Under the pieces are notes generated by a model, which saw only the letters and a list, made by a program, of their open reading frames with translations, did no database searches and was not told the origin of the DNA. A stretch of DNA of 64,000 bases, from sequence record NC_054922.1. One strand, written 5' to 3'. Every line of letters starts with the position of its first letter. Positions within the stretch are counted from its first letter, which is position 1. The DNA comes from Escherichia phage vB_EcoM_KAW1E185. The translations under genes and the position numbers were made by a program. Positions 1 through 43,005 of this stretch are shown here, piece by piece.

Positions 1-186
1 CGTACTAAAGACCGCAAGACGCGTGAACGTAATGCATTTCAAACCACCGGGCTGTCTAAAGCAAAACGTAGACAAATTGCTCGCAAAGCTACCAAAACGA
101 AGATTGCCAATCCAGCAGGTCAATCTCGTGCTCAGCGTAAGCGTAAAAAAGCTCTTAAACGCCGTAAAGCATTAGGATTAAGCTAA
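1..186 (+). CDS. C-terminal fragment of upstream head gene, probably prohead core protein gp68 (5' end outside window)
   Basis: Open frame 1 runs from window start to TAA at 184-186, overlapping the gene 21 ATG (TAATG); basic Lys/Arg-rich tail; position matches T4 gene 68. Confidence 0.45.
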
Positions 187-824
187 TGAATGAACCCCAA
201 TTACTAATTGAAACTTGGGGTCAACCTGGCGAAATTATTGATGGTGTGCCAATGCTTGAATCCCACGATGGAAAAGACTTAGGTTTAAAACCTGGTTTAT
301 ACATCGAAGGAATATTCATGCAAGCGGAAGTCGTCAATAGAAATAAACGTCTTTATCCAAAACGCATATTAGAAAAAGCGGTAAAAGACTATATCAATGA
401 GCAAGTTTTAACTAAACAAGCTCTCGGAGAATTAAATCATCCTCCACGCGCTAATGTTGACCCGATGCAAGCCGCTATCATTATAGAAGATATGTGGTGG
501 AAAGGAAATGACGTATACGGACGAGCTCGTGTTATTGAAGGTGACCATGGTCCTGGAGATAAATTAGCAGCTAATATTCGTGCCGGATGGATTCCAGGAG
601 TTTCTTCTCGTGGATTAGGTTCATTGACTGACACAAATAAAGGTTATCGTATCGTAAACGAAGGATTCAAATTAACTGTAGGTGTTGATGCAGTATGGGG
701 TCCAAGTGCTCCAGATGCATGGGTAACTCCTAAGGAAATTACCGAATCACAGACGGCGGAAGCCGATACAAGTGCCGATGACGCCTATATGGCTCTCGCA
801 GAGGCCATGAAAAAAGCGTTATAA
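186..824 (+). CDS. 21: Prohead core protease gp21
   Basis: 212-aa ORF recognised as T4 gp21 (same length); synteny 21-22-23-24. Confidence 0.92.
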   Translation: MNEPQLLIETWGQPGEIIDGVPMLESHDGKDLGLKPGLYIEGIFMQAEVVNRNKRLYPKRILEKAVKDYINEQVLTKQALGELNHPPRANVDPMQAAIIIEDMWWKGNDVYGRARVIEGDHGPGDKLAANIRAGWIPGVSSRGLGSLTDTNKGYRIVNEGFKLTVGVDAVWGPSAPDAWVTPKEITESQTAEADTSADDAYMALAEAMKKAL

Positions 825-827
825 ATA
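820..827 (+). promoter_or_regulatory. T4-type late promoter TATAAATA upstream of gene 22
   Basis: Exact TATAAATA about 28 nt upstream of the gene 22 ATG. Confidence 0.55.
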
Positions 828-854
828 TTATTATCTAAACAACAGGACTACAAA

Positions 855-1664
855 ATGCTTAAAGAACAACTGATTGCTGAAGCGCAAAAAATTGATGCTT
901 CCGTTGCTCTTGATAGTATTTTCGAATCAGTTAATATTTCTCCGGAAGCAAAAGAAACTTTCGGCACTGTATTCGAAGCTACCGTCAAGCAGCACGCCGT
1001 TAAATTAGCTGAATCTCATATCGCTAAAATTGCTGAAAAAGCAGAAGAAGAAGTAGAAAAAAATAAAGAAGAAGCCGAAGAAAAAGCTGAGAAGAAAATC
1101 GCTGAGCAAGCTTCTAAATTCATCGACCATCTTGCGAAAGAATGGCTCGCTGAAAATAAATTAGCAGTTGATAAAGGCATCAAAGCCGAACTGTTTGAAT
1201 CCATGCTTGGTGGATTAAAAGAGCTCTTTGTTGAACACAACGTTGTTGTTCCAGAAGAATCAGTTGATGTTGTAGCTGAAATGGAAGAAGAGCTGCAAGA
1301 ACATAAAGAAGAATCAGCTCGTCTGTTCGAAGAACTCAATAAGCGTGACGCATATATCAATTATGTGCAGCGTGAAGTGGCATTGAGCGAAAGTACTAAA
1401 GATCTGACTGAGTCTCAAAAAGAAAAAGTCTCTGCTCTGGTCGAAGGTATGGATTATTCAGATGAATTCTCAAGTAAATTGAGTGCCATCGTAGAAATGG
1501 TGAAGAAGTCTAATAAAGATGAAAGCACTATTACTGAGGGTATAAATACTCCTGATACTGAAGCAGCCGGACTGAATTTCGTCACTGAAGCTGTAGAAGA
1601 TAAAGCTGCACCTGGTGCAGAAGATATTGTAAGTGTATATGCGAAAGTCGCATCTCGTTTCTAA
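855..1664 (+). CDS. 22: Prohead core scaffold protein gp22
   Basis: 269-aa acidic, coiled-coil-like ORF (Glu/Lys rich); T4 gp22 length and position. Confidence 0.9.
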   Translation: MLKEQLIAEAQKIDASVALDSIFESVNISPEAKETFGTVFEATVKQHAVKLAESHIAKIAEKAEEEVEKNKEEAEEKAEKKIAEQASKFIDHLAKEWLAENKLAVDKGIKAELFESMLGGLKELFVEHNVVVPEESVDVVAEMEEELQEHKEESARLFEELNKRDAYINYVQREVALSESTKDLTESQKEKVSALVEGMDYSDEFSSKLSAIVEMVKKSNKDESTITEGINTPDTEAAGLNFVTEAVEDKAAPGAEDIVSVYAKVASRF

Positions 1665-1682
1665 TTTTAAAGGTTAACACAA

Positions 1683-3248
1683 ATGACTATCAAAACTAAA
1701 GCTGAACTTTTGAACAAATGGAAACCATTACTGGAAGGTGAAGGTTTACCGGAAATTGCTAATAGCAAACAAGCGATTATCGCTAAAATCTTTGAAAACC
1801 AGGAAAAAGATTTCCAGACAGCTCCAGAGTACAAAGACGAAAAAATCGCTCAGGCGTTCGGTTCTTTCTTAACAGAAGCTGAAATCGGTGGTGACCACGG
1901 TTACAACGCTACTAACATCGCTGCTGGTCAGACTTCTGGCGCAGTAACTCAGATTGGCCCAGCTGTTATGGGTATGGTACGTCGTGCTATTCCTAACCTG
2001 ATTGCTTTCGATATTTGCGGTGTTCAGCCGATGAACAGCCCGACTGGCCAGGTATTCGCACTGCGCGCAGTATATGGTAAAGACCCAATCGCTGCCGGTG
2101 CTAAAGAAGCATTCCACCCAATGTATGGTCCAGATGCAATGTTCTCTGGTCAGGGTGCTGCTAAGAAATTCACAGCTCTGGCTGCTAGCACACAAACCAC
2201 AGTAGGTGATATCTATACTCACTTCTTCCAGGACACTGGTACTGTGTATCTGCAGGCTTCTGCTCAAGTAACAATTAGTTCTACTGCAGATGATGCAGCT
2301 AAATTAGATGCTGAAATTAAGAAACAAATGGAAGCTGGTGCACTGGTAGAAATCGCTGAAGGTATGGCTACTTCTATCGCTGAACTTCAGGAAAGTTTCA
2401 ACGGTTCTACCGATAACCCATGGAATGAAATGGGCTTCCGTATCGATAAACAAGTTATCGAAGCTAAATCTCGTCAGCTGAAAGCTGCTTACTCTATCGA
2501 ATTAGCACAAGACCTCCGCGCTGTTCACGGTATGGATGCTGATGCTGAACTGTCTGGTATTCTGGCTACCGAAATCATGCTGGAAATCAACCGCGAAGTT
2601 GTTGATTGGATTAACTACTCAGCTCAGGTTGGTAAATCTGGTATGACCCTGACTCCGGGTTCTAAAGCTGGTGTATTTGACTTCCAGGATCCGATTGATA
2701 TTCGTGGTGCTCGCTGGGCGGGTGAATCCTTTAAAGCTCTGTTGTTCCAGATTGACAAAGAAGCAGTTGAAATTGCTCGTCAGACCGGTCGCGGTGAAGG
2801 TAACTTCATTATCGCTTCCCGTAACGTAGTTAACGTTCTGGCTTCAGTTGATACTGGCATTTCTTATGCTGCACAGGGTCTGGCTACCGGCTTTAACACT
2901 GATACTACCAAGTCAGTATTTGCTGGTGTTCTGGGTGGTAAATACCGTGTATATATCGACCAGTATGCTAAACAGGATTATTTCACTGTAGGTTATAAAG
3001 GTCCGAACGAAATGGATGCTGGTATTTACTATGCTCCATATGTAGCTCTGACTCCGCTGCGTGGTTCCGATCCGAAGAACTTCCAACCAGTAATGGGATT
3101 CAAAACTCGTTACGGTATCGGTATCAACCCATTTGCAGAATCCGCTGCTCAGGCTCCGGCTTCTCGCATCCAGAGCGGTATGCCTTCTATTCTGAATAGC
3201 CTTGGTAAAAACGCTTACTTCCGCCGTGTATATGTTAAAGGTATCTAA
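1683..3248 (+). CDS. 23: Major capsid protein gp23
   Basis: 521-aa ORF recognised as T4 gp23 precursor; strong biased codon usage typical of a highly expressed late gene. Confidence 0.97.
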   Translation: MTIKTKAELLNKWKPLLEGEGLPEIANSKQAIIAKIFENQEKDFQTAPEYKDEKIAQAFGSFLTEAEIGGDHGYNATNIAAGQTSGAVTQIGPAVMGMVRRAIPNLIAFDICGVQPMNSPTGQVFALRAVYGKDPIAAGAKEAFHPMYGPDAMFSGQGAAKKFTALAASTQTTVGDIYTHFFQDTGTVYLQASAQVTISSTADDAAKLDAEIKKQMEAGALVEIAEGMATSIAELQESFNGSTDNPWNEMGFRIDKQVIEAKSRQLKAAYSIELAQDLRAVHGMDADAELSGILATEIMLEINREVVDWINYSAQVGKSGMTLTPGSKAGVFDFQDPIDIRGARWAGESFKALLFQIDKEAVEIARQTGRGEGNFIIASRNVVNVLASVDTGISYAAQGLATGFNTDTTKSVFAGVLGGKYRVYIDQYAKQDYFTVGYKGPNEMDAGIYYAPYVALTPLRGSDPKNFQPVMGFKTRYGIGINPFAESAAQAPASRIQSGMPSILNSLGKNAYFRRVYVKGI

Positions 3249-3263
3249 TCTTTGACGATTTAA

Positions 3264-3290
3264 GGGACCTTCGGGTCCCTTTAGTTGTTT
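3264..3290 (+). terminator. Rho-independent terminator after gene 23: GGGACC-UUCG-GGUCCC hairpin plus T-run
   Basis: Perfect 6-bp GC stem with UUCG tetraloop at 3264-3279 followed by T-rich tract. Confidence 0.65.
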
Positions 3291-3296
3291 TTATGG

Positions 3297-3304
3297 TATA
3301 AATA
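3297..3304 (+). promoter_or_regulatory. T4-type late promoter TATAAATA for gene 24
   Basis: Exact TATAAATA 28 nt upstream of the gene 24 ATG. Confidence 0.6.
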
Positions 3305-3331
3305 AATCATATAAACCAAAAGGAAAGCGCA

Positions 3332-4615
3332 ATGGCTAAAATCAACGAACTTCTGCGCGAATCAACCACAACGAATAGCAACTCAATCGGTCGCCCAAAT
3401 CTCGTTGCTTTGACTCGCGCTACCACTAAATTAATATATTCTGACATTGTAGCAACGCAAAGAACTAATCAACCTGTTGCTGCTTTTTATGGTATCAAAT
3501 ACCTTAATCCAGATAACGAATTTACATTTAAAACTGGTGCTACTTACGCTGGCGAAGCTGGATACGTAGACCGAGAACAAATCACAGAATTAACAGAAGA
3601 GTCTAAATTAACTCTCAATAAAGGCGATTTATTCAAATATAATAATATCGTTTATAAAGTATTAGAAGATACACCATTTGCTGATATTGAAGAAAGCGAT
3701 TTAGAATTAGCTCTTCAGATTGCAATTGTTCTTTTAAAGGTTCGTTTATTTTCTGATGCTGCAGTAACAAGCAAATTTGAAAGCTCTGATAGTGAAATTG
3801 CGGATGCTAGATTCCAGATTAATAAATGGCAAACCGCAGTTAAATCTCGTAAACTTAAAACTGGCATTACGGTTGAATTAGCACAAGATTTAGAAGCAAA
3901 TGGATTCGATGCTCCTAATTTCTTGGAAGATTTGCTTGCAACTGAAATGGCAGATGAAATCAATAAAGATATTCTGCAATCTTTGATTACAGTATCAAAA
4001 CGCTATAAAGTTACAGGAATTACTGATACTGGATTCATTGATTTGAGTTATGCATCTGCACCTGAAGCTGGTCGTTCATTATACCGAATGGTATGTGAAA
4101 TGGTTTCGCATATCCAAAAAGAATCAACTTATACTGCAACGTTCTGTGTTGCTTCAGCTCGTGCCGCTGCGATTCTTGCTGCATCAGGTTGGTTAAAACA
4201 TAAACCAGAAGATGACAAATATCTTTCACAAAATGCCTATGGGTTCTTAGCTAATGGTTTACCGCTTTATTGCGATACTAACAGCCCATTAGATTATGTA
4301 ATCGTTGGCGTAGTAGAAAATATTGGCGAAAAAGAAATTGTTGGATCAATTTTCTATGCTCCGTATACAGAAGGTCTTGACTTAGATGACCCTGAACATG
4401 TAGGTGCATTTAAAGTTGTAGTTGATCCAGAAAGTTTGCAGCCATCTATCGGTTTATTGGTTAGATATGCTTTATCTGCAAATCCTTACACTGTAGCAAA
4501 AGATGAAAAAGAAGCAAGAATAATTGATGGTGGAGACATGGATAAAATGGCGGGTCGTTCAGATTTGTCTGTTTTATTAGGTGTTAAATTACCAAAAATT
4601 ATCGTTGATGAATAA
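3332..4615 (+). CDS. 24: Capsid vertex protein gp24
   Basis: 427-aa ORF, gp23 paralogue at the T4 position and length. Confidence 0.93.
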   Translation: MAKINELLRESTTTNSNSIGRPNLVALTRATTKLIYSDIVATQRTNQPVAAFYGIKYLNPDNEFTFKTGATYAGEAGYVDREQITELTEESKLTLNKGDLFKYNNIVYKVLEDTPFADIEESDLELALQIAIVLLKVRLFSDAAVTSKFESSDSEIADARFQINKWQTAVKSRKLKTGITVELAQDLEANGFDAPNFLEDLLATEMADEINKDILQSLITVSKRYKVTGITDTGFIDLSYASAPEAGRSLYRMVCEMVSHIQKESTYTATFCVASARAAAILAASGWLKHKPEDDKYLSQNAYGFLANGLPLYCDTNSPLDYVIVGVVENIGEKEIVGSIFYAPYTEGLDLDDPEHVGAFKVVVDPESLQPSIGLLVRYALSANPYTVAKDEKEARIIDGGDMDKMAGRSDLSVLLGVKLPKIIVDE

Positions 4616-4620
4616 AACAA

Positions 4621-4642
4621 AGGGACCGAAAGGTCCCTTTTT
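4621..4642. terminator. Bidirectional terminator hairpin between convergent genes 24 and rnlB
   Basis: GGGACC-GAAA-GGTCCC stem-loop flanked by T-run on plus strand; reverse complement also forms a hairpin. Confidence 0.6.
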
Positions 4643-4644
4643 AT

Positions 4645-5649
4645 TTAACTTACCAGTTCAATCCAAGCCGGACGAAGTACATCTTGTACCATTTTAACTA
4701 ATTCCTTTTTAATCAAAGAAGGATTATCCGCTTGAGTTAAAGTAATACCTTCACGAGAAGTTTCTTCCAAAATATCTTGAACAGTTAGTCCCATCACCTT
4801 TCCAAAATCCTTTGGACCAATTTCGCCAATTTTAGAAATAACGTTATTTACTCGGTTCAGTGTAACGTAACAAGCTAAAATTCCAACCAATTTGTTATCA
4901 GCTTCTGACAGTTCAACTTTAGCTTTAATAGGCTTATCAGACTTTTTCTTTTCACTAAATTTAGAGTTCTTGCATTTGATGGCTACGCGATTGCCATTAG
5001 GCATCCAAGAAGGATAACAAGGTTTCAATACATATCCTTCAGCAGTAAATACTTCGCCTTTTGCTTCAGCATTCCAAACGCATTTATTTGCATCGACTAA
5101 TCCAGCATGGTCTACTGTAAAATTATAATCTTGGACGACAGAATCTAAATCATTTGGCAATTTAATAAGCTCTTCAAATTTACCGCGACCTAAAAGTGGA
5201 GCCATTTTAAATTTAAATGTATTGCAGAATGATTCCATCATATAATCGTCGACATAAGTCACATCGCCACTTTCTGTAGTGACAATAATGTCAAATACAT
5301 AAAAATCTTTATCACCATAATCGACATTCTTCTGAATGCCAGGTCCAGCGAATTCGCCAAAGACTTGATAAGATACAACCGCTGAGGTTTCCATAATATC
5401 TTGTACTGCTTTAATGGAATCAGCGTAATTCTTTAGAATAATTTCATACCCAAAGAAATCTTCAGCAGGAAGAATCGGTCCAGTACGTTTAGCGCAAGTT
5501 ACTTTATCACGCTCAATAATCAATGAGAAATTTGTGCCGTGAATCTTTTCACGAGCTACCCATTCGCCGCCAGTCAATCCCAAGCTATAAAGTTTTTCAA
5601 TAAATTTAGAGTTGTAATGATTTTCAAGACTGCTATACTTTTTAAACAT
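4645..5649 (-). CDS. rnlB: RNA ligase 2 (Rnl2)
   Basis: 334-aa ORF with KIHG nucleotidyltransferase motif; recognised as T4 Rnl2. Confidence 0.93.
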
Positions 5650-5658
5650 AATTAATCC

Positions 5659-5937
5659 TCAAAATGTAATTTCTAACCAATCACCATCACGCTGATCACT
5701 ATTAACTTTAAAGCTGAATCCTTCTTTTCTCAGCCAATCACCAATTTCTTCAGTAATCAATTTATCACGAGCAATACAATAATAATTAAAATGTGTTTTA
5801 CCCTGTTCAGCTGCTTTATTAGCAAGTTCCGAAAAATCTTTAATAAAACACTCTAGCTTAAACTGTTTACTTTTGAATGCTTTTTCGCGTAATTGATTAG
5901 CAAAAGATTCATTTTCATAAAGATCATACTGTTCCAT
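5659..5937 (-). CDS. Hypothetical protein, T4 24.2-like
   Basis: 92-aa ORF in conserved position between rnlB and hoc. Confidence 0.55.
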   Translation of the reverse strand: MEQYDLYENESFANQLREKAFKSKQFKLECFIKDFSELANKAAEQGKTHFNYYCIARDKLITEEIGDWLRKEGFSFKVNSDQRDGDWLEITF

Positions 5938-6139
5938 TTTTCACCTTTTTATTGATATGTCTTTTTCTATAGACAACTTTTTCTCGAGTTTCAAATTTAT
6001 TCTTAGCAGTCATAGCTCGAGCCCATAATACAGCCACTTCTTTTGCCTGTAAGTTTAATTCACGAGCAATTTCAATGAATGACTTTCCAGACTCATGAAG
6101 AGTAAACACCACAACCTCAGTTCTCATAATCAATCTCAT
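5924..6139 (-). CDS. Hypothetical protein, T4 24.3-like
   Basis: 71-aa ORF overlapping the downstream ORF start; conserved position. Confidence 0.5.
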   Translation of the reverse strand: MRLIMRTEVVVFTLHESGKSFIEIARELNLQAKEVAVLWARAMTAKNKFETREKVVYRKRHINKKVKNGTV

Positions 6140-6206
6140 GTTATCGAGTTGGTGCCATTATATACATCATTTTCTGATTGTGTTTTGTGTGCTTTCAAAA
6201 TGAAGA

Positions 6207-6224
6207 AAGGGGCCGAAGCCCCTT
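6207..6224 (-). terminator. C(UUCG)G hairpin downstream of hoc on minus strand
   Basis: Minus-strand AGGGGC-UUCG-GCCCCU stem-loop followed by T-rich tract. Confidence 0.5.
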
Positions 6225-6228
6225 ATGA

Positions 6229-7359
6229 TTATGGATAGGTATAGATGATACCAGTTTCTAAAGCAGTTTTATGAATGATGTATCCATTACGCGATTCTTG
6301 GACATCAACTTCTGGATAGTCTTTCATCATCTTCTGAAGAGTGTAACGATGCAGGTAGTATTTACTATCTGGATCTTCAGTTTTCCAATCTTTACCTTCT
6401 TCAGTCATTTTTTGGATTTCATCCATAACCCACCAACCGCACCAGATGTAAGCTGAGCTACGGTGTGGAAGAGGATGAACATAAGGTAATTCACCTTCTG
6501 GTTCTGGAGCAACTTTATCAGTTACCTGAACTTGACCTTCCGCCGTAATAGTTTTGCTATCATAATCAGCAGCAGTAACAGTTGCAGTAACTTCAATAGT
6601 TTGACTTCCAATAGATGAGGTATCAACTGTATATACATTAGTTGATCCTTCTACAGGAGAAGAATCTTTCTTCCATGAATACGCAATTTGCGCTTCTTCT
6701 GGAGCATCAGTGACATTAGCAGTAAATGTAGCCGAAGCATCTTGTTGAACGTTAATAGAAGGAGGAGTCAATGTAACCTGTGGATTCATTGTCTTCTTAT
6801 TAACTGTTAATGATACTTCATTCGAAGTAACTTCCTTTTCATTGTAATTTTCAGCAGTTACTTGAGCTACGCATTTAATTCTTTTTACTCCACTTGTAGT
6901 TGGAGTATAGTTAAATGTAGAGTTAGTTTCTCCACCAACTTGTGAATCATCTACATACCACTGATACGTAGCAGATGCTCCATCAGGTTGAGAAGCTAAG
7001 GCAGCGGTAAATTCAACAGCTGTTCCAATCACTCCAGCAGCAGGACTATCAGGAGTTACTGCCAAGGTAGTTGTCTGTGTCTTATTTTGAACTGTGATAG
7101 TTGTTGTCGCTTCAGCCGTTTCCGGGCCTCCTTCAGAAAGTGTATTTGTTGCAACTACTTTAATAGTCTTTTGACCGGCAGGTCCTTTTAGTACATAACT
7201 AAAAGTTGCTTCAGCTCCATCTTGTGGAGCATCATCTACAGTCCAAGCATAGGTAATAGTTCCGCCTCCAGTTTCACCACTGGGTGTAGCAGTAAACTGC
7301 TGAGTCTGATCTATAACTCCAGTAGGTGTTTTAGGAGTTATATCAACTGTAAAAGCCAT
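6229..7359 (-). CDS. hoc: Highly immunogenic outer capsid protein Hoc (Ig-like domains)
   Basis: 376-aa Thr/Val-rich ORF with repeated Ig-like segments; T4 Hoc length and position. Confidence 0.85.
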   Translation of the reverse strand: MAFTVDITPKTPTGVIDQTQQFTATPSGETGGGTITYAWTVDDAPQDGAEATFSYVLKGPAGQKTIKVVATNTLSEGGPETAEATTTITVQNKTQTTTLAVTPDSPAAGVIGTAVEFTAALASQPDGASATYQWYVDDSQVGGETNSTFNYTPTTSGVKRIKCVAQVTAENYNEKEVTSNEVSLTVNKKTMNPQVTLTPPSINVQQDASATFTANVTDAPEEAQIAYSWKKDSSPVEGSTNVYTVDTSSIGSQTIEVTATVTAADYDSKTITAEGQVQVTDKVAPEPEGELPYVHPLPHRSSAYIWCGWWVMDEIQKMTEEGKDWKTEDPDSKYYLHRYTLQKMMKDYPEVDVQESRNGYIIHKTALETGIIYTYP

Positions 7360-7368
7360 AAGTTATCC

Positions 7369-8049
7369 TTATTTTAATGTTACGAAAGAAGAATTGCGTG
7401 TTTCACGAATTAGAACTGATCCGTCGCGATTAATGTAATAAATTAAGCTAAATAAAGTTTGGTGTGCCGACGCATGTTCAAAACTAGTTGGGTGAGATTT
7501 CCAATCCGGAGTTTCAGCAATCCACTGATAAATCCACCAAGGAACAGTACAGAATCCTGGATTTTTTCCAATCAGCTGAAGATTCGGACTAAAGTTTTCC
7601 GGAAGAGTAAATACAGACGGCTTTTCAGATTCAATAATCTCAGCTACAGCTTGCTCGAATTTTTCTTCAACAAAAGGAGTATCTTCAATCAAAACATCGG
7701 TATTTTCGGGAATTTTATCCGTTTCGACTACTTCAATTTTAATGTCAGATTTAACCGGAGAATCAATCAGAAGTGCTGCCTCTGGATTGACTTCTTCATC
7801 GTCATATTTTAATCCGTCTGCGGCATCAGCAGCATCAATTAAGTCTTTAATAGATAACCCATCAGTCTCTGGCATAGGTTCACTAGCGAGCTTCTGGAGG
7901 GCTTCTTCAATATCATTAACGATATTATCAAAAGATTTATTCTTTTTGACCTTTATACCAAACTGTTCAGCATATTCAGCTAATTTAGCTTTAGCTTCTT
8001 TATTATCATCAAGAGCCTTCAGCTCTGCAATATAATCTTTATCTATCAT
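7369..8049 (-). CDS. inh: Inhibitor of prohead protease gp21 (Inh)
   Basis: 226-aa ORF downstream of hoc; T4 position. Confidence 0.7.
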   Translation of the reverse strand: MIDKDYIAELKALDDNKEAKAKLAEYAEQFGIKVKKNKSFDNIVNDIEEALQKLASEPMPETDGLSIKDLIDAADAADGLKYDDEEVNPEAALLIDSPVKSDIKIEVVETDKIPENTDVLIEDTPFVEEKFEQAVAEIIESEKPSVFTLPENFSPNLQLIGKNPGFCTVPWWIYQWIAETPDWKSHPTSFEHASAHQTLFSLIYYINRDGSVLIRETRNSSFVTLK

Positions 8050-8062
8050 AATATTTCCTCAG

Positions 8063-8070
8063 TATAAATA
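8063..8070 (+). promoter_or_regulatory. T4-type late promoter TATAAATA upstream of uvsW
   Basis: Exact TATAAATA 30 nt upstream of the uvsW ATG; uvsW is late-transcribed in T4. Confidence 0.55.
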
Positions 8071-8099
8071 TAGATATATTTATTACATGGTATTTAGAC

Positions 8100-9611
8100 A
8101 TGACTGACATTAAAGTACATTTTTATGATTTTAGTCACGTGAGAATTGATTGTGAAGAAAGTACATTTCATGAACTCCGTGATTTCTTTAGCTTTGAAGC
8201 TGATGGGTATCGTTTTAATCCGAAGTACAAATATGGCCACTGGGATGGACGAATCCGTCTTTTAGATTATAATCGTCTTCTTCCATTCGGCTTAGTCGGG
8301 CAAATTAAAAAGTTCTGTGATAACTTTGGCTATAAAGCCTGGATTGACCCACAAATTAACGAAAAAGAAGAATTATCAAGAAAAGATTTTGATGAATGGC
8401 TTTCTAAATTAGAAATCTATTCAGGAAATAAAAGAATTGAACCACACTGGTATCAAAAAGATGCAGTGTTCGAAGGATTAGTTAATCGTCGTAGAATTCT
8501 TAATCTTCCAACATCTGCAGGTAAATCTTTAATTCAAGCTTTGCTTGCGCGATATTATTTGGAAAATTATGAAGGTAAAATTCTTATCATTGTTCCAACA
8601 ACTGCTCTGACAACTCAGATGGCTGATGACTTCGTCGACTATCGTTTATTCAGTCATGCAATGATAAAGAAAATTGGCGGCGGAGCATCAAAAGATGATA
8701 AATATAAAAATGATGCACCAGTCGTTGTTGGTACATGGCAAACTGTAGTTAAACAACCGAAAGAATGGTTCTCACAGTTTGGAATGATGATGAATGATGA
8801 ATGTCATCTTGCTACAGGAAAAAGTATTTCATCTATCATATCAGGTTTAAATAACTGCATGTTCAAATTCGGTTTGTCTGGTTCATTACGTGATGGCAAA
8901 GCCAATATCATGCAGTATGTTGGAATGTTTGGTGAAATATTTAAGCCAGTAACGACTTCTAAATTAATGGAAGATGGACAAGTAACTGAGCTAAAAATTA
9001 ATAGTATTTTTCTTCGCTATCCCGATGAGTTCACTACTAAATTAAAGGGAAAAACTTATCAAGAAGAAATAAAAATTATTACTGGGCTTAGTAAAAGAAA
9101 TAAATGGATTGCTAAATTAGCTATTAAGCTTGCGCAAAAAGATGAAAACACTTTTGTCATGTTTAAACATGTATCACATGGTAAAGCTATTTTCGATTTA
9201 ATTAAAAATGAATACGATAAAGTTTATTACGTATCAGGGGAAGTTGATACCGAAACACGCAACGTAATGAAAACCTTAGCTGAAAACGGTAAAGGAATAA
9301 TTATAGTAGCTAGTTATGGTGTATTTTCTACTGGTATTTCAGTTAAAAATCTGCATCACGTTGTTTTAGCGCACGGTGTTAAATCAAAAATCATTGTATT
9401 ACAAACAATAGGTCGCGTATTACGTAAGCATGGTTCTAAAACAATCGCAACGGTCTGGGACCTCATTGATGATTGTGGTGTTAAGCCAAAATCTGCTAAT
9501 ACGAAAAAGAAATACGTTCATTTGAACTATCTTTTAAAACATGGCATTGATCGTATTCAGCGCTACGCAGATGAAAAATTTAATTACGTAATGAAAACAG
9601 TTAATTTATAA
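8100..9611 (+). CDS. uvsW: UvsW RNA-DNA / DNA-DNA helicase
   Basis: 503-aa ORF with Walker A-like PTSAGKS and DECH helicase motifs; recognised as T4 UvsW. Confidence 0.92.
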   Translation: MTDIKVHFYDFSHVRIDCEESTFHELRDFFSFEADGYRFNPKYKYGHWDGRIRLLDYNRLLPFGLVGQIKKFCDNFGYKAWIDPQINEKEELSRKDFDEWLSKLEIYSGNKRIEPHWYQKDAVFEGLVNRRRILNLPTSAGKSLIQALLARYYLENYEGKILIIVPTTALTTQMADDFVDYRLFSHAMIKKIGGGASKDDKYKNDAPVVVGTWQTVVKQPKEWFSQFGMMMNDECHLATGKSISSIISGLNNCMFKFGLSGSLRDGKANIMQYVGMFGEIFKPVTTSKLMEDGQVTELKINSIFLRYPDEFTTKLKGKTYQEEIKIITGLSKRNKWIAKLAIKLAQKDENTFVMFKHVSHGKAIFDLIKNEYDKVYYVSGEVDTETRNVMKTLAENGKGIIIVASYGVFSTGISVKNLHHVVLAHGVKSKIIVLQTIGRVLRKHGSKTIATVWDLIDDCGVKPKSANTKKKYVHLNYLLKHGIDRIQRYADEKFNYVMKTVNL

Positions 9612-9624
9612 GGGCTTCGGCCCT
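9611..9624 (+). promoter_or_regulatory. Intercistronic C(UUCG)G stem-loop between uvsW and uvsW.1
   Basis: AGGGC-UUCG-GCCCU hairpin starting at the last base of the uvsW stop codon. Confidence 0.45.
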
Positions 9625-9867
9625 TTGGAGAAAAAGATGTTACTAGAATTTAAACAATTTCTTTATGAAGCTTCTATTGATGAATTTATGGGTAAAATTG
9701 CCTCTTGTCAAACATTAGAAGGTCTAGAAGAACTTGAAGCTTATTATAAGAAAAGAGTTAAAGAAACTGAATTAAAAGATACTGATGACATCTCTGTGAG
9801 AGATGCTTTGGCAGGAAAAAGAGCTGAATTAGAAGATTCAGACGATGAAGTAGAAGAAAGCTTTTAA
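9625..9867 (+). CDS. UvsW.1 small acidic protein
   Basis: 80-aa ORF immediately after uvsW; T4 uvsW.1 position. Confidence 0.65.
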   Translation: MEKKMLLEFKQFLYEASIDEFMGKIASCQTLEGLEELEAYYKKRVKETELKDTDDISVRDALAGKRAELEDSDDEVEESF

Positions 9868-9922
9868 ATTAAAAAAGGCCCAACCAAAAAGGAAGGGCCA
9901 AAACTATAGACTAAAGGTCACA

Positions 9923-10090
9923 CTATAGCAAAAGTTGTGTTTCATTTAATTGTTCTTCCGAACTTTCTGAAACTGGTAGTTCTTTAATGTAATTATAACA
10001 AGGCCCAGGATGTACAGGACCTTTGTCTGTTTCAACAACCAATGCAGAATCGATTGGAGTTTTACAGACAACACAAATCTTATCTGACAT
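9923..10090 (-). CDS. Small Cys-rich protein, T4 uvsY.-2-like (55 aa)
   Basis: Minus-strand ORF below the track cutoff, hand-translated as MSDKICVVCKTPIDS...; contains CxxC plus a later Cys; conserved position. Confidence 0.45.
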   Translation of the reverse strand: MSDKICVVCKTPIDSALVVETDKGPVHPGPCYNYIKELPVSESSEEQLNETQLLL

Positions 10091-10118
10091 GATTGTCTCC
10101 TCTAAATTATATATCTAT

Positions 10119-10343
10119 TTATATAACTCTCATATGCATATCAATGCCCATATCTTTAGAATAAAAATATTCATCAAGATATCCGGCAAATTTTCCTTTA
10201 ATATAAAGTACATCTTCACCGCATGGGTGGTCGGCCAGGATACGAATATCCTGACGCTTGAGATTATACTTTTTCATTAAGAATTGAATTTCCGTTTCAA
10301 ATTCTTCTTCATAATTAAAAGCATCATCAATGCTATATCTCAT
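10119..10343 (-). CDS. Hypothetical protein, T4 uvsY.-1-like
   Basis: 74-aa ORF whose start overlaps the uvsY stop. Confidence 0.55.
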   Translation of the reverse strand: MRYSIDDAFNYEEEFETEIQFLMKKYNLKRQDIRILADHPCGEDVLYIKGKFAGYLDEYFYSKDMGIDMHMRVI

Positions 10344-10756
10344 TATTTTCCAGCCTCAAATGCTCGCATGTCTTGAATATGCTTAATAGCAAATCCGCGT
10401 GATTTGATAGCATCAAGAGCTCCGCTACAGAAATCTAATAAAATCCCCCAATACTGTAACGAGGTATCAACCTTTAAAACATCCTTATCAGCTGATAGAA
10501 CTGTCTTCATTTCTGATTTCTCGTAACGATCCATACTAAATTCATCACCATCTCCTCGTCCCGAGTAGTAGTCTAATTTAGCTTTAAGAGCAACTTTTTT
10601 CTGCGCGTCAATTCTAAGCATTTCCTTTTTAATACTTGAATGCTTATTGAGCCATTTACTATATAACATCACATTATTAGCTGCTTCATACTGCAATTTA
10701 GTCGAATCTATAAACACATCTTTCTTCAATTCTTCTTGAAGATCTTCTAATTTCAT
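10343..10756 (-). CDS. uvsY: UvsY recombination mediator
   Basis: 137-aa ORF recognised as T4 UvsY. Confidence 0.9.
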   Translation of the reverse strand: MKLEDLQEELKKDVFIDSTKLQYEAANNVMLYSKWLNKHSSIKKEMLRIDAQKKVALKAKLDYYSGRGDGDEFSMDRYEKSEMKTVLSADKDVLKVDTSLQYWGILLDFCSGALDAIKSRGFAIKHIQDMRAFEAGK

Positions 10757-10796
10757 ATTGTTCTCTATTCAATTGTTATTGGATGGACTTAGATTC

Positions 10797-10822
10797 ATTA
10801 TACCACGTTTATACGTGAAGCA
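10797..10822 (-). promoter_or_regulatory. MotA-dependent middle promoter for uvsY (MotA box TGCTTCA plus -10 TATAAT)
   Basis: Minus strand reads aaTGCTTCAcgtataaacgtggTATAATg upstream of uvsY; matches the T4 middle-promoter architecture. Confidence 0.55.
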
Positions 10823-11221
10823 TTATACTCTGTTACTGGAAGCCAGTTGTAGTTTTATCTGCTCAATATCATCAGGGTTATCGATGACCGAAAAGCGTAT
10901 TTCTACTATCAGAGTATAATCATCATAAACTGGTATTACATTAACTGCTAATTTATCAATACGTGGCTCGTAGTTTCTTACTGCGCTTTCAATGTTACGC
11001 TCAACAGTATCAGCAGTAAGAGGAGTCATATTCTCAAAAAGCTGATCAGATAAATCGCATCCAAATTCTGGGTCAAATGGCCTTGACCCTTTCCTGGTTG
11101 TAATAATTCCCAAAAGGCTATTTTTAATTGACCTTAATCCAAGAGATCTGGAAACGTCTTTGTCCCAATCCATTTTCATTTCTGGGTCAATGTCAGAATA
11201 AAGCTTATTAATATTTGCCAT
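10823..11221 (-). CDS. 25: Baseplate wedge protein gp25
   Basis: 132-aa ORF; T4 gp25 length and position; start overlaps gp26 stop (TAATG). Confidence 0.9.
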   Translation of the reverse strand: MANINKLYSDIDPEMKMDWDKDVSRSLGLRSIKNSLLGIITTRKGSRPFDPEFGCDLSDQLFENMTPLTADTVERNIESAVRNYEPRIDKLAVNVIPVYDDYTLIVEIRFSVIDNPDDIEQIKLQLASSNRV

Positions 11222-11847
11222 TACAATAGCTCAAAGAATTCTTTGAGTCCTCTTATTACATGAGCGTGAGATTTTCCACACTCTGGACACTTAATTGGAA
11301 CAGCCAAATAAACAGTAGGCTTTAAAAGCATATCTTTTATAGCTACAATATCTGACTCTGTGATGATAGAATATAAATCTTCCAACTCTTTTTCATTTAA
11401 GTCTTCAATTGGAATGCTTTCACCGTTAGCATGAATCGTTTCTATACATGATACTATCATGTGGGCTATATTTTTATCATCAAAAATTTTAGGGTAATGG
11501 AACTTAATTTTAATGTCACCCAGTGTATACCAGAGGTCTTCTGGTGCATCTATTTGTGTATGTAATAGATTTATATGGGTTGGTATTTCAGTTCCGCAGG
11601 TGCACTTCCAGGAGTTTTCGTGATTAACTTCTCCAAGAGAATGTGCCCATAAATGAATCAATAGTAGTTCTGATTCTTGGCGGTTTAAATCTTTTGCATT
11701 TGTGCATTCTTTGATTAGCTTTTTAACGATCTCTTCTACTGAACCGTTCTTTTTAGCAGTAATAAGTTCTAGATATTCTTTAAGAGTAAATGCGCGACAG
11801 TTGATTATTTTAGAACCAACTCTCACATCAAATTTGTATTCATACAT
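11221..11847 (-). CDS. 26: Baseplate hub subunit gp26
   Basis: 208-aa ORF; T4 position. Confidence 0.85.
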
Positions 11848-11869
11848 ATTTAGCTCCTTTATTTATCAT

Positions 11870-11877
11870 ATTTATAA
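11870..11877 (-). promoter_or_regulatory. Late promoter TATAAATA for genes 26/25 (minus strand)
   Basis: Reverse complement of 11870-11877 is TATAAATA, upstream of the gp26 start. Confidence 0.5.
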
Positions 11878-11880
11878 ATA
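11873..11880 (+). promoter_or_regulatory. Late promoter TATAAATA for gene 51 (plus strand)
   Basis: TATAAATA 18 nt upstream of the gene 51 ATG; overlaps the divergent minus-strand late promoter. Confidence 0.55.
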
Positions 11881-11897
11881 GAATAAAAGGAGCATCT

Positions 11898-12647
11898 ATG
11901 GCAAACATTATTCGTTGTAAATTACCAGATGGTGTTCATCGTTTTAAACCATTTACGGTAGAAGATTATCGAGATTTTTTGTTAGTTCGAAACGATATAG
12001 AACATCGGTCACCACAAGAACAAAAAGAAATAATTGCTGATTTAATTGCCGATTATTTTGGAGACTATCCGAAGACTTGGCAACCATTTATATTTTTGCA
12101 GGTATTTGTAGGGTCAATAGGTAAAACTAAAGTACCGGTCACATTTGTATGTCCAAAATGTAAAAAAGAAAAGACAGTTCCATTTGAAATATATCAAAAA
12201 GAATTAAAGGAACCTGTTTTTGATGTAGCTAATGTTAAAATTAAATTAAAGTTTCCTTCTGAGTTTTATGAAAATAAAGCAAAGATGATTACTGAAAATA
12301 TTCATTCCGTTCAAGTAGATGAAATGTGGTATGATTGGAATGAAATTAGCGAATCAAGTCAAATAGAACTTGTTGATGCCATCGAGATAGAAACATTAGA
12401 AAAAATTCTCGATGCAATGAATCCTATTAATTTAACATTGCATATGTCATGTTGTAATAAGTATGTAAAAAAATACACTGATATAGTAGATGTGTTTAAG
12501 CTATTAGTTAACCCAGATGAAATATTTACTTTTTATCAAATCAATCACACGCTCGTAAAAAGTAATTATAGCTTAAATTCAATAATGAAAATGATTCCTG
12601 CTGAGCGCGGATTCGTATTAAAACTGATTGAGAAGGATAAACAATAA
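11898..12647 (+). CDS. 51: Baseplate hub assembly catalyst gp51
   Basis: 249-aa ORF; T4 position and length. Confidence 0.85.
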
Positions 12648-18487: not shown

Positions 18488-18517
18488 ATTATAACACAAC
18501 ACGAGGGACTTGTAAAC
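18488..18517 (-). promoter_or_regulatory. Sigma70-type early promoter (-35 GTTTAC, 17-nt spacer, -10 TATAAT)
   Basis: Minus strand GTTTAC-aagtccctcgtgttgtg-TTATAAT; the 23-mer including the -35 and spacer is identical to one at 32212-32234. Confidence 0.5.
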
Positions 18518-20574
18518 TACATCTTAAACTTTTTAGACATTCCGTCGATGTTAACCAAAGAAGCTAAGATTTGAGAAACTTCGTTTTCCTCTTCTTTTGA
18601 TTCTTCTACAAGGAATTGATTAAATCCAGTCATTGGACGAACTTCACCAGTTTCCATCAGATGGTCGCCATCATATACCGATTCTTCTAATTGTTCAGAA
18701 GGAGGAACGATTGTGCCTTCGATTAAATACTTGTTATAAGCAGTTTCTTTCATCATGTACGTGCTCACTTTATTAATCTTCAGCAAAATTCCACGCGGTA
18801 GAATAACTTCAGCTTCTGTTGCTATTCCGAGACTTCCTGGATATACAACATTAACTTTATGAGCTCCATCAATTGCCCATCCTATTTGAACTTTAACGTA
18901 TTCAGGATTTTCTTTATACGCTCTTATTTCGTTTGGATTAATAGTTATTCCTTCTTCATTTTTATCAACCGTTAATTCGTTACGAGCTTCTGGTTCTAAA
19001 AGACCAATACCAGCATGTGTAATTCCAAAACGCCCAAAAATGATAGGAGTTAAAGAAGTAGATACAAAATTTCTGAAATAGAACACTTTATTTTTAACTA
19101 GCGCTTCGTATATAGGAGCAGTCATACTTTGAGCACGATAAACTGTAATGCCTTCCGGTATGCGGTCACCATTTTCAAAAGCTGAATCTAAATTATTTAT
19201 AGCAGATTCAATTTCTTTTTCACTCATTACATCATATCGTTCTGGATTGTAACGACCTAAAAGAAGATTATTGATGTCAGTATATCCTGAACCACAATAC
19301 TCTCTAATGCCGCGCTTTTGTGATGGAGTATATTTAGAACCATCACGGGCAATAGTAATATCAATCATTGGACCTGCACCAATTCCAGAAAAACTATAAA
19401 TCATTCTTTTGAGGAATTTAGTTTTTGCTGCGTTCCAGGAATTTTTAGTCATTTCTTCCCAGACTTCATCTGGCTGCCCTTTACGAGTTTTATTATGTTT
19501 ATCAAGCCAATTATCTTTATATTCTTCAAAGAGTTGATTAACAGCTGCTGCGTATTTCTCTAAACATTTTATTGAAGTAGTTGGTTCATTTTTAATCGCA
19601 TTAAGAATTACATCTTTAATTTTTTCAGAAACTTCATTAACCTCACTTTTTGAAAAGAATTTATAGTCATAATGAAGTTCATTCGCAGTTCCTTCGGCAA
19701 TAATTTTTGCTGCCTTAGTTTTAGAAGCTAATGAATTAATTCCAAGCTTCATTTCTTCTGCTTCGGGAATTAAAGGAGCGGTAGCAGGTTTATTGAAATT
19801 AGCTGCGGTAGATTCATACTTCTGGAATAATTCACTTTCAAATCTAGAAGATTCCAATGATTGACTTTGCGCAATTGCTCTACGGGAAATTTTAACTTTA
19901 ACGATTACAGCTTGGTCAGAACGTTTATCATTTTCTTGTGCAATAGATGCTGCAATTGCCTCATTTTTAGTTACTTGAGCTCCAGTATCTTTATTGATAT
20001 AAACATCGCCGACTTTCGATTCAACTTTAGTAAAGAGCTCGGTACTAATTTCCGGAACTCCTGGAATGTCTTCTAGTGATACATTTTTGCGATGTATAAG
20101 AATATATGCATACTTTTTATCATAATCCCAGAGTTCCTTAAGAAGGACGTATCTGCCACCTGAACGACTACGGATAAGTCTATCAGCAATAACTTGAATT
20201 TGTCGAGCTTGACCAGCGGTTTTAGACTTAAGAATACGAAGCATACAAGCATCAATTTTATACTGACGCATTGTTTGCATTGCAACAGTAAAAACTGAAT
20301 TGATATAATTAATTGGGCTTGGACCGAGACCTTTTAATTTAGCAATTGAACCTTTGGCAGTTAATGTAAAAGGAACAATATGCATCATTTTATCGCCCAT
20401 CTTTAAATCGCGATTAGTATCACCTCCAGATGTATAGGTGCATAAACGAAAGCCTGGTTGTTCAATTGCATCATCAACACGAACTGAAAAAATTTGTGGT
20501 ATTTTCTTCTTTGGATTTAAGTTTGTAATCGGAAGAGTAGTATCTTCGTCAAATAATTCTGTAATGAGTTCCAT
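18517..20574 (-). CDS. alt: Alt, packaged ADP-ribosyltransferase
   Basis: About 685-aa ORF recognised as T4 Alt; start placed at the second Met to match the T4 N-terminus MELITELF. Confidence 0.88.
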   Translation of the reverse strand: MELITELFDEDTTLPITNLNPKKKIPQIFSVRVDDAIEQPGFRLCTYTSGGDTNRDLKMGDKMMHIVPFTLTAKGSIAKLKGLGPSPINYINSVFTVAMQTMRQYKIDACMLRILKSKTAGQARQIQVIADRLIRSRSGGRYVLLKELWDYDKKYAYILIHRKNVSLEDIPGVPEISTELFTKVESKVGDVYINKDTGAQVTKNEAIAASIAQENDKRSDQAVIVKVKISRRAIAQSQSLESSRFESELFQKYESTAANFNKPATAPLIPEAEEMKLGINSLASKTKAAKIIAEGTANELHYDYKFFSKSEVNEVSEKIKDVILNAIKNEPTTSIKCLEKYAAAVNQLFEEYKDNWLDKHNKTRKGQPDEVWEEMTKNSWNAAKTKFLKRMIYSFSGIGAGPMIDITIARDGSKYTPSQKRGIREYCGSGYTDINNLLLGRYNPERYDVMSEKEIESAINNLDSAFENGDRIPEGITVYRAQSMTAPIYEALVKNKVFYFRNFVSTSLTPIIFGRFGITHAGIGLLEPEARNELTVDKNEEGITINPNEIRAYKENPEYVKVQIGWAIDGAHKVNVVYPGSLGIATEAEVILPRGILLKINKVSTYMMKETAYNKYLIEGTIVPPSEQLEESVYDGDHLMETGEVRPMTGFNQFLVEESKEEENEVSQILASLVNIDGMSKKFKM

Positions 20575-20610
20575 CATATCCTCTCTAGTGTTTATTCTAT
20601 TTATAAAATT

Positions 20611-28095: not shown

Positions 28096-28328
28096 AGTAC
28101 GCCATACACCCTTTGTGCTTCAACTAATCCATCAAAATCCAGTTTAAGATGTGTTATTTGGTCACCATCACCTGGATTCACAATTACTAATACTGAACGA
28201 GGAGTTTCGGTAATAACACGAACCGATGTTTCTGGAAATCGTACAGAAACTTTATTTACCAATTCCTGAGCAAATAGTTTAACTTTTTCTTGGAATTCTT
28301 TAACAGTAATTGGTTTTTCACTTAGCAT
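28092..28328 (-). CDS. Hypothetical protein, T4 cd.2-like
   Basis: 78-aa ORF. Confidence 0.45.
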   Translation of the reverse strand: MLSEKPITVKEFQEKVKLFAQELVNKVSVRFPETSVRVITETPRSVLVIVNPGDGDQITHLKLDFDGLVEAQRVYGVL

Positions 28329-28849
28329 GTTGATCCCAGCTCCTTACTTTCAACGTTTTTAACTAATTTGACAGAAACTAATTCGGCATCTTGGGTAATC
28401 ATTACCGGGCCTTCTTCATACTCTTCAAGATATTCTAGAGCTTTCTTTTTAGCTTCTTCCTTCGTATCAGTTTGAGCATAGATATAAAACATACAACCAG
28501 TAATACCTACTACTTTCCACTTAATTTCTTTATCAGTTTTAATTTCAAATTTACTGATAGAGTCATCTTTTTGAACTTCTTCGAAAAAATAATATTCTGA
28601 CATATAAGTAATTGAAAATAGCGGGCTATCTTTATAAGATTCGCCCATTACATCAACAGCTTTATACCAGCAATCGTCAATTTCGCGTTTAATGCTAATA
28701 ACATTTTTCGCAGGATCTATTTTTACTTTAAATGAATTTTCCCCAATAAACTGAGAAATTCGTTTATTAGCCCCGCAAGTTTCATTAAAAATATCTTTAT
28801 ATCCAGCTTTAAAGTGATAAACCTTATCTTCTTCAAACCATTTGCTCAT
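28322..28849 (-). CDS. Hypothetical protein, T4 cd.3-like
   Basis: 175-aa ORF preceded by an early promoter. Confidence 0.45.
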   Translation of the reverse strand: MSKWFEEDKVYHFKAGYKDIFNETCGANKRISQFIGENSFKVKIDPAKNVISIKREIDDCWYKAVDVMGESYKDSPLFSITYMSEYYFFEEVQKDDSISKFEIKTDKEIKWKVVGITGCMFYIYAQTDTKEEAKKKALEYLEEYEEGPVMITQDAELVSVKLVKNVESKELGSTC

Positions 28850-29390: not shown

Positions 29391-30805
<1,415 letters not shown>

Positions 30806-33852: not shown

Positions 33853-35022
33853 TTAAAAATATTTTTTAAAACTCATCATAACTTTATCATCAACGTCATT
33901 ATCAATCTGTGCTACAAGATAAGATGACAGTTCTACTTCTTGCGGTGCAGATTGAACATTATCAGAATTAAGATATTCACGAATCCAAGGATACGGATGT
34001 TTAACCGGAGCATCAGTAATTGGGCATGGAAGACCACACTGTTTCATACGAGATACAGTTAAGTAATCAATAAAGCTCCACATGCTATTTGTATTTAATC
34101 CAGGAACATCGCCATCTTTAAATAAATGAACTGCCCAGTCTTTTTCTTGACGGTTAACTTCCATGAAAATATCAACTGCTTCTTGTTCACACTCTTGAGC
34201 AATTTTAACCCATTCATCACCATCAGTGCCAAGTTGAAGTTGACGAATAATATATTGGGTGCCTTTAAGGTGAAGCTGCTCATCACGTGCAATGAACTTC
34301 ATAATCTTGGCATTACCTTCCATGATTTCCATGTTCTTATGGAAGTTAAAGGTACATGCGAAAGATACATAAAAACGAATAGCTTCCAATGCGTTGATTA
34401 CGTGCAGGCAGAGGTAAAGAGATTTCATTAGTGCTCGTTTAGTACATTCAACAACTTTGCCTAGCTCTTCTTTACGAAATCCTTCTGATAAAATTCCTTC
34501 ATAATCTTCAACCGCATTCTGATATTCACGAGTCTTAACTAGAACGTCATCATAATAACGACCAATAGATTCAGCACGTTTCATGATAGCTTTATCTAAT
34601 ACAATCTCATCAAATACCTTTGATGGATCAGTATAAAGATTTCGCATGATATGAGTATATGAACGACTGTGAATAGTTTCGCTAAAAGTCCATGTAGCAA
34701 CCCATGTATCAAGACTTGGGTCTGAAATTAACGACATAAGTACAGCAGACGGCGCACGACCCTGAATGCTATCCAAAAGTGATTGATACTTCAGGTTATT
34801 AGTAAAAATATCTTGCTGATATTGAGGAAGCTTGTTAAATTGTGCAGCATCCATCATCAAGTTTACTTCTTCAGGACGCCAGAAAAATGATAAAGATTTC
34901 TCAATAAGTTCTTCAAATACTCTATGCCGTTGAATATCATATCGAGCTAAACCCAATCCAGAACCAAAAAACATCGGCTCAGTCAAAATATTAACAGGGG
35001 ATGTATTAAAAACTGTACTCAT
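33853..35022 (-). CDS. nrdB: Ribonucleotide reductase small subunit NrdB (uninterrupted)
   Basis: 389-aa continuous ORF recognised as T4 NrdB; no intron interrupts the frame. Confidence 0.93.
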   Translation of the reverse strand: MSTVFNTSPVNILTEPMFFGSGLGLARYDIQRHRVFEELIEKSLSFFWRPEEVNLMMDAAQFNKLPQYQQDIFTNNLKYQSLLDSIQGRAPSAVLMSLISDPSLDTWVATWTFSETIHSRSYTHIMRNLYTDPSKVFDEIVLDKAIMKRAESIGRYYDDVLVKTREYQNAVEDYEGILSEGFRKEELGKVVECTKRALMKSLYLCLHVINALEAIRFYVSFACTFNFHKNMEIMEGNAKIMKFIARDEQLHLKGTQYIIRQLQLGTDGDEWVKIAQECEQEAVDIFMEVNRQEKDWAVHLFKDGDVPGLNTNSMWSFIDYLTVSRMKQCGLPCPITDAPVKHPYPWIREYLNSDNVQSAPQEVELSSYLVAQIDNDVDDKVMMSFKKYF

Positions 35023-39359: not shown

Positions 39360-39707
39360 TTAATACGGTTTAGCATCAAATTTTCTCTCAATTTCAGGCG
39401 TGAAATATAATTCTTTACCGCGTTTGGAAAAGCGACCAATAATATGATAATTATTCTCATCAAACGTGATATTACCAATATCCATAGCTTTCAACCAAAT
39501 ATCGATATTTCTATCCAGCTTTATGTCAAAATTCCAATACGGAGAACTATTACCGAAAATACTGCAAGCGGATTCAGTGAAACAACTGCTATAAATCTTG
39601 TCTTTAGGAACTACTAATTGATAGACACCTTTAATAAACTGAGGACCCTGCCACTTTGGCTGTTTCGCGTCTTTTTCTAATAGAATAGGGTAATAATTAA
39701 AATTCAT
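39360..39707 (-). CDS. Hypothetical protein between frd and td
   Basis: Track ORF of 119 aa begins with GTG; the internal ATG at 39705-39707 gives 115 aa; no recognisable motifs. Confidence 0.4.
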   Translation of the reverse strand: MNFNYYPILLEKDAKQPKWQGPQFIKGVYQLVVPKDKIYSSCFTESACSIFGNSSPYWNFDIKLDRNIDIWLKAMDIGNITFDENNYHIIGRFSKRGKELYFTPEIERKFDAKPY

Positions 39708-39727
39708 ATTTTCCGCCACGCGTTATT

Positions 39728-40557
<830 letters not shown>

Positions 40558-42906: not shown

Positions 42907-42989
42907 TTTTATTTCCTTTTTAATTTAATTAACAGTTGGTGCTATGACGATGTATGACCTCATAGCTGGTCAGTGAGATAATTATAATC

Positions 42990-42997: not shown

Positions 42998-43005
42998 ATA
43001 AGCAA

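Follow-up and report, generated by a model that had tools for sequence, protein, structure and literature searches.

Organization of the region

The window, by which is meant the whole 64-kb stretch of DNA analysed here, is a segment of a Tequatrovirus genome that runs from gene 21 to ndd and is collinear with T4, as seen by blastn against the annotated T4 reference (NC_000866, 99000–166000). A megablast search with two parts of the window (1–12000 and 28001–53000) returned hundreds of Tequatrovirus (T4-like) genomes at ~95–98% identity. A record identical to the window is absent from the phage collection searched by megablast, in which the best matches reach ~97.5–97.8% identity.

The window contains three short intergenic spacers at positions that are occupied by seg genes in T4. 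The first separates genes 23 and 24, the second lies between the divergent genes inh and uvsW, and the third separates genes 59 and 32 (Table 1). The identities of the flanking genes were assigned by blastn against the annotated T4 reference, and their ORF lengths are the same as those in T4 and T2. A previous reading of this DNA, made by a model from the letters alone (the sequence-only reading), had placed the spacers at 3249–3331, 8050–8099 and 42907–43005, and these limits are confirmed by the ORF lists. Collinearity with T4 holds on either side of all three sites.

Several other properties of the genes in this segment were recorded. Gene 23 contains a mosaic patch (2183–2282, + strand) that has 40 differences per 100 nt from T2 and only 8 from T4; outside this patch the gene is roughly equally close to both phages. 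The uvsW ORF encodes 503 aa and is followed by a separate ORF of 80 aa (9625–9867, + strand), an arrangement also found in T2. The T4 RefSeq entry instead annotates a single fused uvsW of 587 aa, and remarks on sequence discrepancies there. The alt gene (ADP-ribosyltransferase, 686 aa; 18517–20577, − strand) is present as a single copy, whereas T2 has two tandem alt paralogues and T4 has alt together with the duplication remnants alt.-1 and alt.-2. The window alt aligns with the 3' end of one T2 paralogue and with the body of the other, an arrangement that suggests recombination between paralogues.

Table 1. Position of the genes, spacers and sequence elements in the window
Feature	Position	Strand	Basis or description
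Gene 23	1683–3248	+	ORF list
Gene 23/gene 24 spacer, empty segD site	3249–3331	+	83 bp between the flanking ORFs; 83/83 identical to T2
Intrinsic terminator hairpin after gene 23	3262–3281	+	AAGGGACC-TTCG-GGTCCCTT and T-rich tail; terminator scan
Late promoter box for gene 24	3297–3304	+	TATAAATA, exact match
Shine-Dalgarno of gene 24	3321–3324	+	AGGA, read from the sequence before the gene 24 ATG
Gene 24	3332–4615	+	ORF list
inh	7369–8049	−	ORF list
inh/uvsW divergent spacer, empty segE site	8050–8099		50 bp between the ORFs; 50/50 identical to T2
Late promoter box facing uvsW	8063–8070	+	TATAAATA, exact match
uvsW	8100–9611	+	ORF list
Seg-free (T2-type) uvsW 5' allele	8100–8235	+	Region recoded in segE+ phages
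Five small insertion ORFs	28322–28849, 30485–30805, 39360–39719, 40312–40557, 40569–40901	− (all)	
mobE-type HNH gene (predicted homing endonuclease)	35019–35660	−	213 aa, HNH and NUMOD3, between nrdA and nrdB
Gene 32	41998–42906	−	ORF list
Gene 59/gene 32 spacer, empty segG site	42907–43005	−	99 bp between the ORFs; 99/99 identical to T2
Putative T2-type gene 32 leader pseudoknot (translational operator)	42941–42972	−	Complementarity in the sequence
Putative MotA-type middle-promoter motif	42981–43004	−	TGCTTA (43004–42999), 12 nt, TATAAT (42986–42981)
Late promoter box for gene 32	42990–42997	−	TATAAATA, exact match
Gene 59	43006–43659	−	ORF list

Sequence elements within the spacers

The hairpin downstream of gene 23 consists of 8 base pairs, 5 of them GC, that enclose a loop of 4 nt and are followed by the tail TAGTTGTTTT, and thus has the form of an intrinsic terminator. 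The 23–24 spacer folds with an energy of −23.3 kcal/mol (z = −3.2), and a homologous terminator hairpin is found in T4 directly upstream of the segD cassette. With 15 occurrences of the late promoter motif TATAAATA in the window, compared with 8.5 expected, a lone match is weak. The boxes in the three spacers all have positional counterparts in T4 and T2, and alignment demonstrates that in T4 the box of the inh–uvsW spacer stands in front of segE.

The 32–59 spacer contains further elements. The motif at 42981–43004, which overlaps the late promoter of gene 32, is taken here to be a MotA-type middle promoter on the basis of the established consensus of T4 transcription. Closer to gene 32, two stems can be drawn for a putative pseudoknot, in which stem 1 is formed by UGACC and GGUCA and stem 2 by GCUAUGA and UCAUAGC; stem 2 is also predicted by folding, and the whole stretch is identical to that of T2. 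This is presumably the autoregulatory pseudoknot described for gene 32. No family was matched when the whole window was scanned against Rfam at gathering thresholds, and the pseudoknot therefore finds no support there. Both the MotA-type motif and the pseudoknot assignments fit with the description of T4, where the middle and late promoters of gene 32 lie inside segG (Edgell 2010; PMC2988022). The homology to T4 breaks at 42969/42970, within stem 1 of the pseudoknot, and hence in T4 the last codons of segG would supply the 5' strand of this structure.

According to the sequence-only reading, each spacer held only a terminator hairpin and/or a late promoter. This description is adequate for the 23–24 and inh–uvsW spacers, but is incomplete for the 32–59 spacer with its MotA-type motif and pseudoknot.

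The seg loci of T4 and their counterparts in the window

In the T4 RefSeq sequence (NC_000866) segD is located between genes 23 and 24 (106561–107232, − strand, 672 bp), segE between inh and uvsW (112057–112674, + strand, 618 bp) and segG between genes 32 and 59 (147909–148541, − strand, 633 bp). The insertion sites listed in Table 1 of Edgell, Gibb and Belfort (2010; PMC2988022) agree with this annotation, and the T4 positions given in the sequence-only reading are therefore correct. Pairwise blastn defines what replaces each gene. At the 23/24 site 789 bases of T4 (106522–107310) correspond to 60 bp of the window (3260–3319), at the inh/uvsW site 635 bases (112045–112679) correspond to 19 bp (8087–8105), and at the 32/59 site 623 bases (147919–148541) correspond to 35 bp (42970–43004). 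The 23/24 region of T4 that includes segD amounts to about 755–789 bp.

The two phages have in common the gene order and the flanks (95–99% identity), the gene 23 terminator, the gene 32 leader, and the late promoter ahead of the position of the inh/uvsW insert. T4 differs from the window in the presence of GIY-YIG genes at the three sites, the recoded 5' end of uvsW, the position of the gene 32 promoters within segG, and a different late-promoter context for gene 24.

Search for seg genes and their remnants

The alignment to the T4 reference left the seg cassettes with no counterpart in the window. Searching the window by tblastn with SegD, SegE and SegG gave a best E-value of 2.8, with the matches lying at unrelated places. 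Six-frame translation of the window yields 1195 stop-to-stop segments. Against all of these, phmmer at maximum sensitivity gave a best E-value of 0.34, and a GIY-YIG profile, built from the N-termini of SegD, SegE, SegG and I-TevI, gave a best E-value of 0.82. As a control the profile was run on the corresponding stretch of T4, where it found segD, segE, I-TevI and segG (E ≤ 1e-36); this success is expected of a profile made from those four proteins and demonstrates that the procedure functions. The longest stop-free stretches within the 23/24, inh/uvsW and 32/59 spacers are 25, 16 and 19 codons, respectively.

Degraded copies were sought by local alignment of the spacer-specific bases to the T4 cassettes, with shuffled sequences as a control. 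The segD-site spacer alone aligned above chance, and this signal derives entirely from the hairpin of the gene 23 terminator, a feature retained in T4. Downstream of the hairpin, the remaining 37 bp align to the T4 cassette with a score of 12, compared with a shuffle mean of 12.6. The bases specific to the segE site score 7 (shuffle mean 8.3) and those specific to the segG site score 12 (shuffle mean 10.9), neither of them above chance.

The absence of a GIY-YIG gene or a seg pseudogene from the 23/24, inh/uvsW and 32/59 sites of the window is thus confirmed. The claim of the sequence-only reading that all three loci are free of seg genes is borne out by blastn, tblastn, phmmer, the GIY-YIG profile and the shuffle-controlled alignments, and no degraded seg pseudogene, which that reading had named as evidence against itself, was found in the spacers. 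This statement covers the 64-kb window; the segA, segB, segC and segF sites fall outside it.

Other mobile elements in the window

Among the six homing-endonuclease ORFs that T4 carries along this stretch (segD, segE, I-TevIII, mobE, I-TevI and segG), only mobE is represented. The mobE-type gene combines an HNH catalytic motif (Pfam HNH, E = 3.3e-5) with a DNA-binding motif of the NUMOD type (NUMOD3, E = 1.9e-8), and matches phrog_655 ‘homing endonuclease’ (E = 1e-66). The MobE protein of T4 is shorter (141 aa) and is 65% identical to the window protein over 119 aa. In nucleotide sequence the T6 copy of mobE is 97.8% identical to the window gene and that of vB_EcoM_Lutter is 100% identical; the mobE-type gene is full-length in 48 records. 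With this gene the window does contain a predicted homing endonuclease, even though the three spacers are empty of seg genes.

At window positions 34355–34358 and 38763–38768, nrdB and td are intron-free, as determined by blastn against T4. The group I introns that carry I-TevIII (138458–139057 of T4) and I-TevI (143544–144564 of T4) are both missing from the window.

Relative to T4 the window has insertions between cd.2 and cd.3, pseT and pseT.1, td and frd, and frd and frd.1, which contain five small ORFs. These were considered as possible hidden homing endonucleases and rejected, as they contain no nuclease domain; their hits are confined to families of unknown function (phrog_3710, phrog_2364, phrog_1928, phrog_3183 and phrog_3566/DUF7247), and among the window-specific insertions only the mobE-type gene qualifies.

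Comparison with T2 and distribution of the empty junctions

T2 (AP018813) lacks seg genes at the three sites and has the same flanking genes, separated by spacers of 83, 50 and 99 bp in which every base is the same as in the window. This identity is confined to the spacers, in that the flanking genes of T2 are only 94.5–98.2% identical to those of the window. The alignment of the two phages is unbroken for 18.8 kb across the 23/24 and inh/uvsW sites and for 4.3 kb across the 32/59 site. With intact flanking genes directly adjacent to one another, and spacers that have the length and the sequence of those in T2, all three sites are T2-type empty (HEG-minus) alleles. T2 differs from the window elsewhere, lacking mobE and several of the small ORFs and carrying two alt genes rather than one.

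To assess how common the empty state is, records of the phage collection with a contiguous empty junction were counted against those with a seg gene. At the 23/24 site 586 of the 655 matching records have the empty junction and 55 have the T4 seg gene. The corresponding numbers for the inh/uvsW site are 445 and 159 of 605, and for the 32/59 site 355 and 142 of 498. At each site the two classes together account for approximately all of the matching records, and the sites therefore behave as simple two-allele polymorphisms with the empty junction as the major allele. At most 356 records could carry any seg gene, if none carried more than one, so that well over 100 records lack all three.

These counts bear on the proposal that the absence is an artefact, either because T4 does not in fact have seg genes in these places or because they were collapsed out of the window during assembly. 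The first half of the proposal gains some weight from the fact that the initial description was made without database searches, but is contradicted by the T4 RefSeq annotation and the published table of insertion sites (Edgell 2010, Table 1; PMC2988022), and the second half would have to accommodate identical contiguous empty junctions in hundreds of independently sequenced genomes. An artefact is accordingly considered to be exceedingly unlikely.

The empty layout extends beyond the genus. The Mosigvirus ST0 has a 50-bp inh–uvsW spacer and the Jiaodavirus KP1079 an 81-bp 23–24 spacer. As the layout is seen at two of the three sites in other genera of the Tevenvirinae, the empty state would be ancestral and the seg genes later gains. 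Judged from these sequence comparisons the empty sites of the window are the ordinary, majority and ancestral allele, and as such are already documented: that T-even phages differ in whether they carry seg genes has been on record since the 1990s, and T4 has been stated to be the outlier (Edgell 2010; PMC2988022). The sequence-only reading had called the phage a seg-free variant that would be useful for dating the acquisition of mobile elements. It is indeed seg-free at the three loci, but is not special in this respect, having the majority allele with spacers that are 100% identical to those of T2. For dating acquisitions it adds little, since the empty state is in the majority at each site and occurs in other genera.

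Alleles of the neighbouring genes

The 5' end of uvsW exists in two versions. Over the first 100 nt the window has no mismatches to T2 and 26 to T4. In the first two 100-nt bins the segE+ allele, represented by T4 and ESh16, has 26 and 11 differences from the window, compared with 0 and 1 for T2. The recoded stretch comprises the first ~135 nt of the gene and is common to T4 and the unrelated ESh16, both of which are segE+. It is altered mostly at third codon positions and is one codon shorter; the other version is the one found in both the window and T2. From this distribution, the uvsW 5' tract is clearly a co-conversion or immunity tract adjoining the segE site. The target of SegE is given as uvsW (Edgell 2010, Table 1; PMC2988022), and as the window carries the seg-free uvsW allele it is probably susceptible to SegE. 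That the window phage would be a target of SegE-driven exclusion is plausible.

No such division is apparent in gene 32, next to the segG site. The 5'-most ~200 nt of gene 32 are identical in the window and T2, and the two differ at 21 of 909 positions over the whole gene. A split between seg+ and seg− alleles of gene 32 was sought in four phages and no consistent pattern was found. Without a clean allele split among these four phages the sequence alone is no proof that the SegG site is intact, and the susceptibility of the window to SegG, judged from its likeness to T2, is considered plausible. The first 100 nt of gene 24 are identical in the window, T4 and T2. SegD has been reported not to home, and for this reason no SegD-driven exclusion is expected. 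The SegD site is also said to be the same in segD+ and segD− phages.

A second possibility is that the window phage remains empty because cleavage-resistant (immune) target alleles block invasion, which would make it a non-target. It has been noted as a paradox that many phages stay seg-free despite efficient homing (Edgell 2010; PMC2988022), and the window does differ from T2 at a few positions inside genes 32 and 24. Nevertheless, T2, which is experimentally susceptible, agrees with the window at every base of the spacers, of the initial 100 nt of uvsW and of the initial ~200 nt of gene 32, and the window lacks the recoded uvsW allele that accompanies segE. Immunity of the target alleles is therefore regarded as highly improbable. 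Much the same applies to a broader form of the idea, that the phage is seg-free owing to some property other than chance, be it subtle changes in the gene 32 or gene 24 targets or another blocking factor, and thus represents natural homing resistance. None of the data on the spacers and the adjoining ends of the target genes, which are identical to those of susceptible T2, point to homing resistance, and this too appears highly doubtful.

Origin of the empty sites

The three intervals are very probably unoccupied, ancestral T2-type alleles of presence/absence polymorphisms of GIY-YIG homing endonucleases, in a lineage that never acquired seg genes there. T4 and a minority of its relatives would have gained segD, segE and segG as cassettes of roughly 620–790 bp, each of which would have displaced some tens of bases from the original spacer, and the lineage of the window phage would not have taken part in any of these three gains. 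The spacers would then contain just their regulatory elements: the gene 23 terminator with the late promoter and ribosome-binding site of gene 24 in the first, a late promoter facing uvsW in the second, and in the third the overlapping middle and late promoters of gene 32 together with the pseudoknot translational operator.

The same layout could in principle have been produced by secondary loss, whereby an ancestor with segD, segE and/or segG underwent precise deletions that restored the short spacers. Homing endonuclease genes are expected to pass through cycles of gain, decay and loss (Edgell 2010; PMC2988022) and the seg genes are dispensable. However, three independent deletions would have had to arrive, base for base, at the spacers that T2 and hundreds of further phages carry, and the seg-free uvsW 5' allele would have had to be remade as well. 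In addition, neither a scar nor a remnant was found in the spacers, and the outgroup genera share the empty layout. A simple deletion of segG would moreover be harmful, given that the gene 32 promoters of T4 are inside it (PMC2988022). Loss through recombination with a seg-free phage (back-conversion) would leave the same present state and would be indistinguishable from never having had the gene. Taken together, these points render secondary loss by deletion very unlikely.

Expected consequences for mixed infection and annotation

If the sites are ancestral, unoccupied alleles, the window phage would be a potential recipient of seg genes. When two phages infect together, a free-standing homing endonuclease cuts the allele that lacks it, and repair from the seg+ genome then copies the gene in and co-converts the flanking markers. 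There are precedents for both of the relevant enzymes. In the account of the SegB paper, SegE homes into RB30, with a cleavage site in the inh (hoc.1)–uvsW region, and the segE-minus hoc.1 (inh)–uvsW regions of RB30 and RB52 are cleaved by SegE and converted in nearly 100% of cases in crosses (Kadyrov et al. 1997, as cited in the SegB paper). As described there, RB30 and RB52 resemble the window in the segE-lacking layout of the inh–uvsW region. The same account reports SegG-driven exclusion of T2 gene 32, with T2 as the classic seg-free recipient in T4 × T2 marker-exclusion crosses.

If a segE+ or segG+ phage infects the same cell, the window genome would by analogy be expected to serve as the cleaved recipient. 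Repair of the double-strand break would cost it the local markers of uvsW and gene 32, as experiments with RB30 and T2 have shown, and no comparable loss would be expected from SegD. The suggestion in the sequence-only reading that the phage is a target for marker exclusion mediated by seg genes is consequently plausible for SegE and SegG, in view of the T2-identical spacers and the seg-free uvsW allele, but does not extend to SegD, which is reported not to home.

In practical terms the use of the finding is confined to annotation, in that no genes should be called in the three spacers and the regulatory elements within them should be labelled. For the phage itself it leads to a routine expectation, namely that crossing it to a phage that is segE+ or segG+ would lead to loss of the local markers of uvsW and gene 32.
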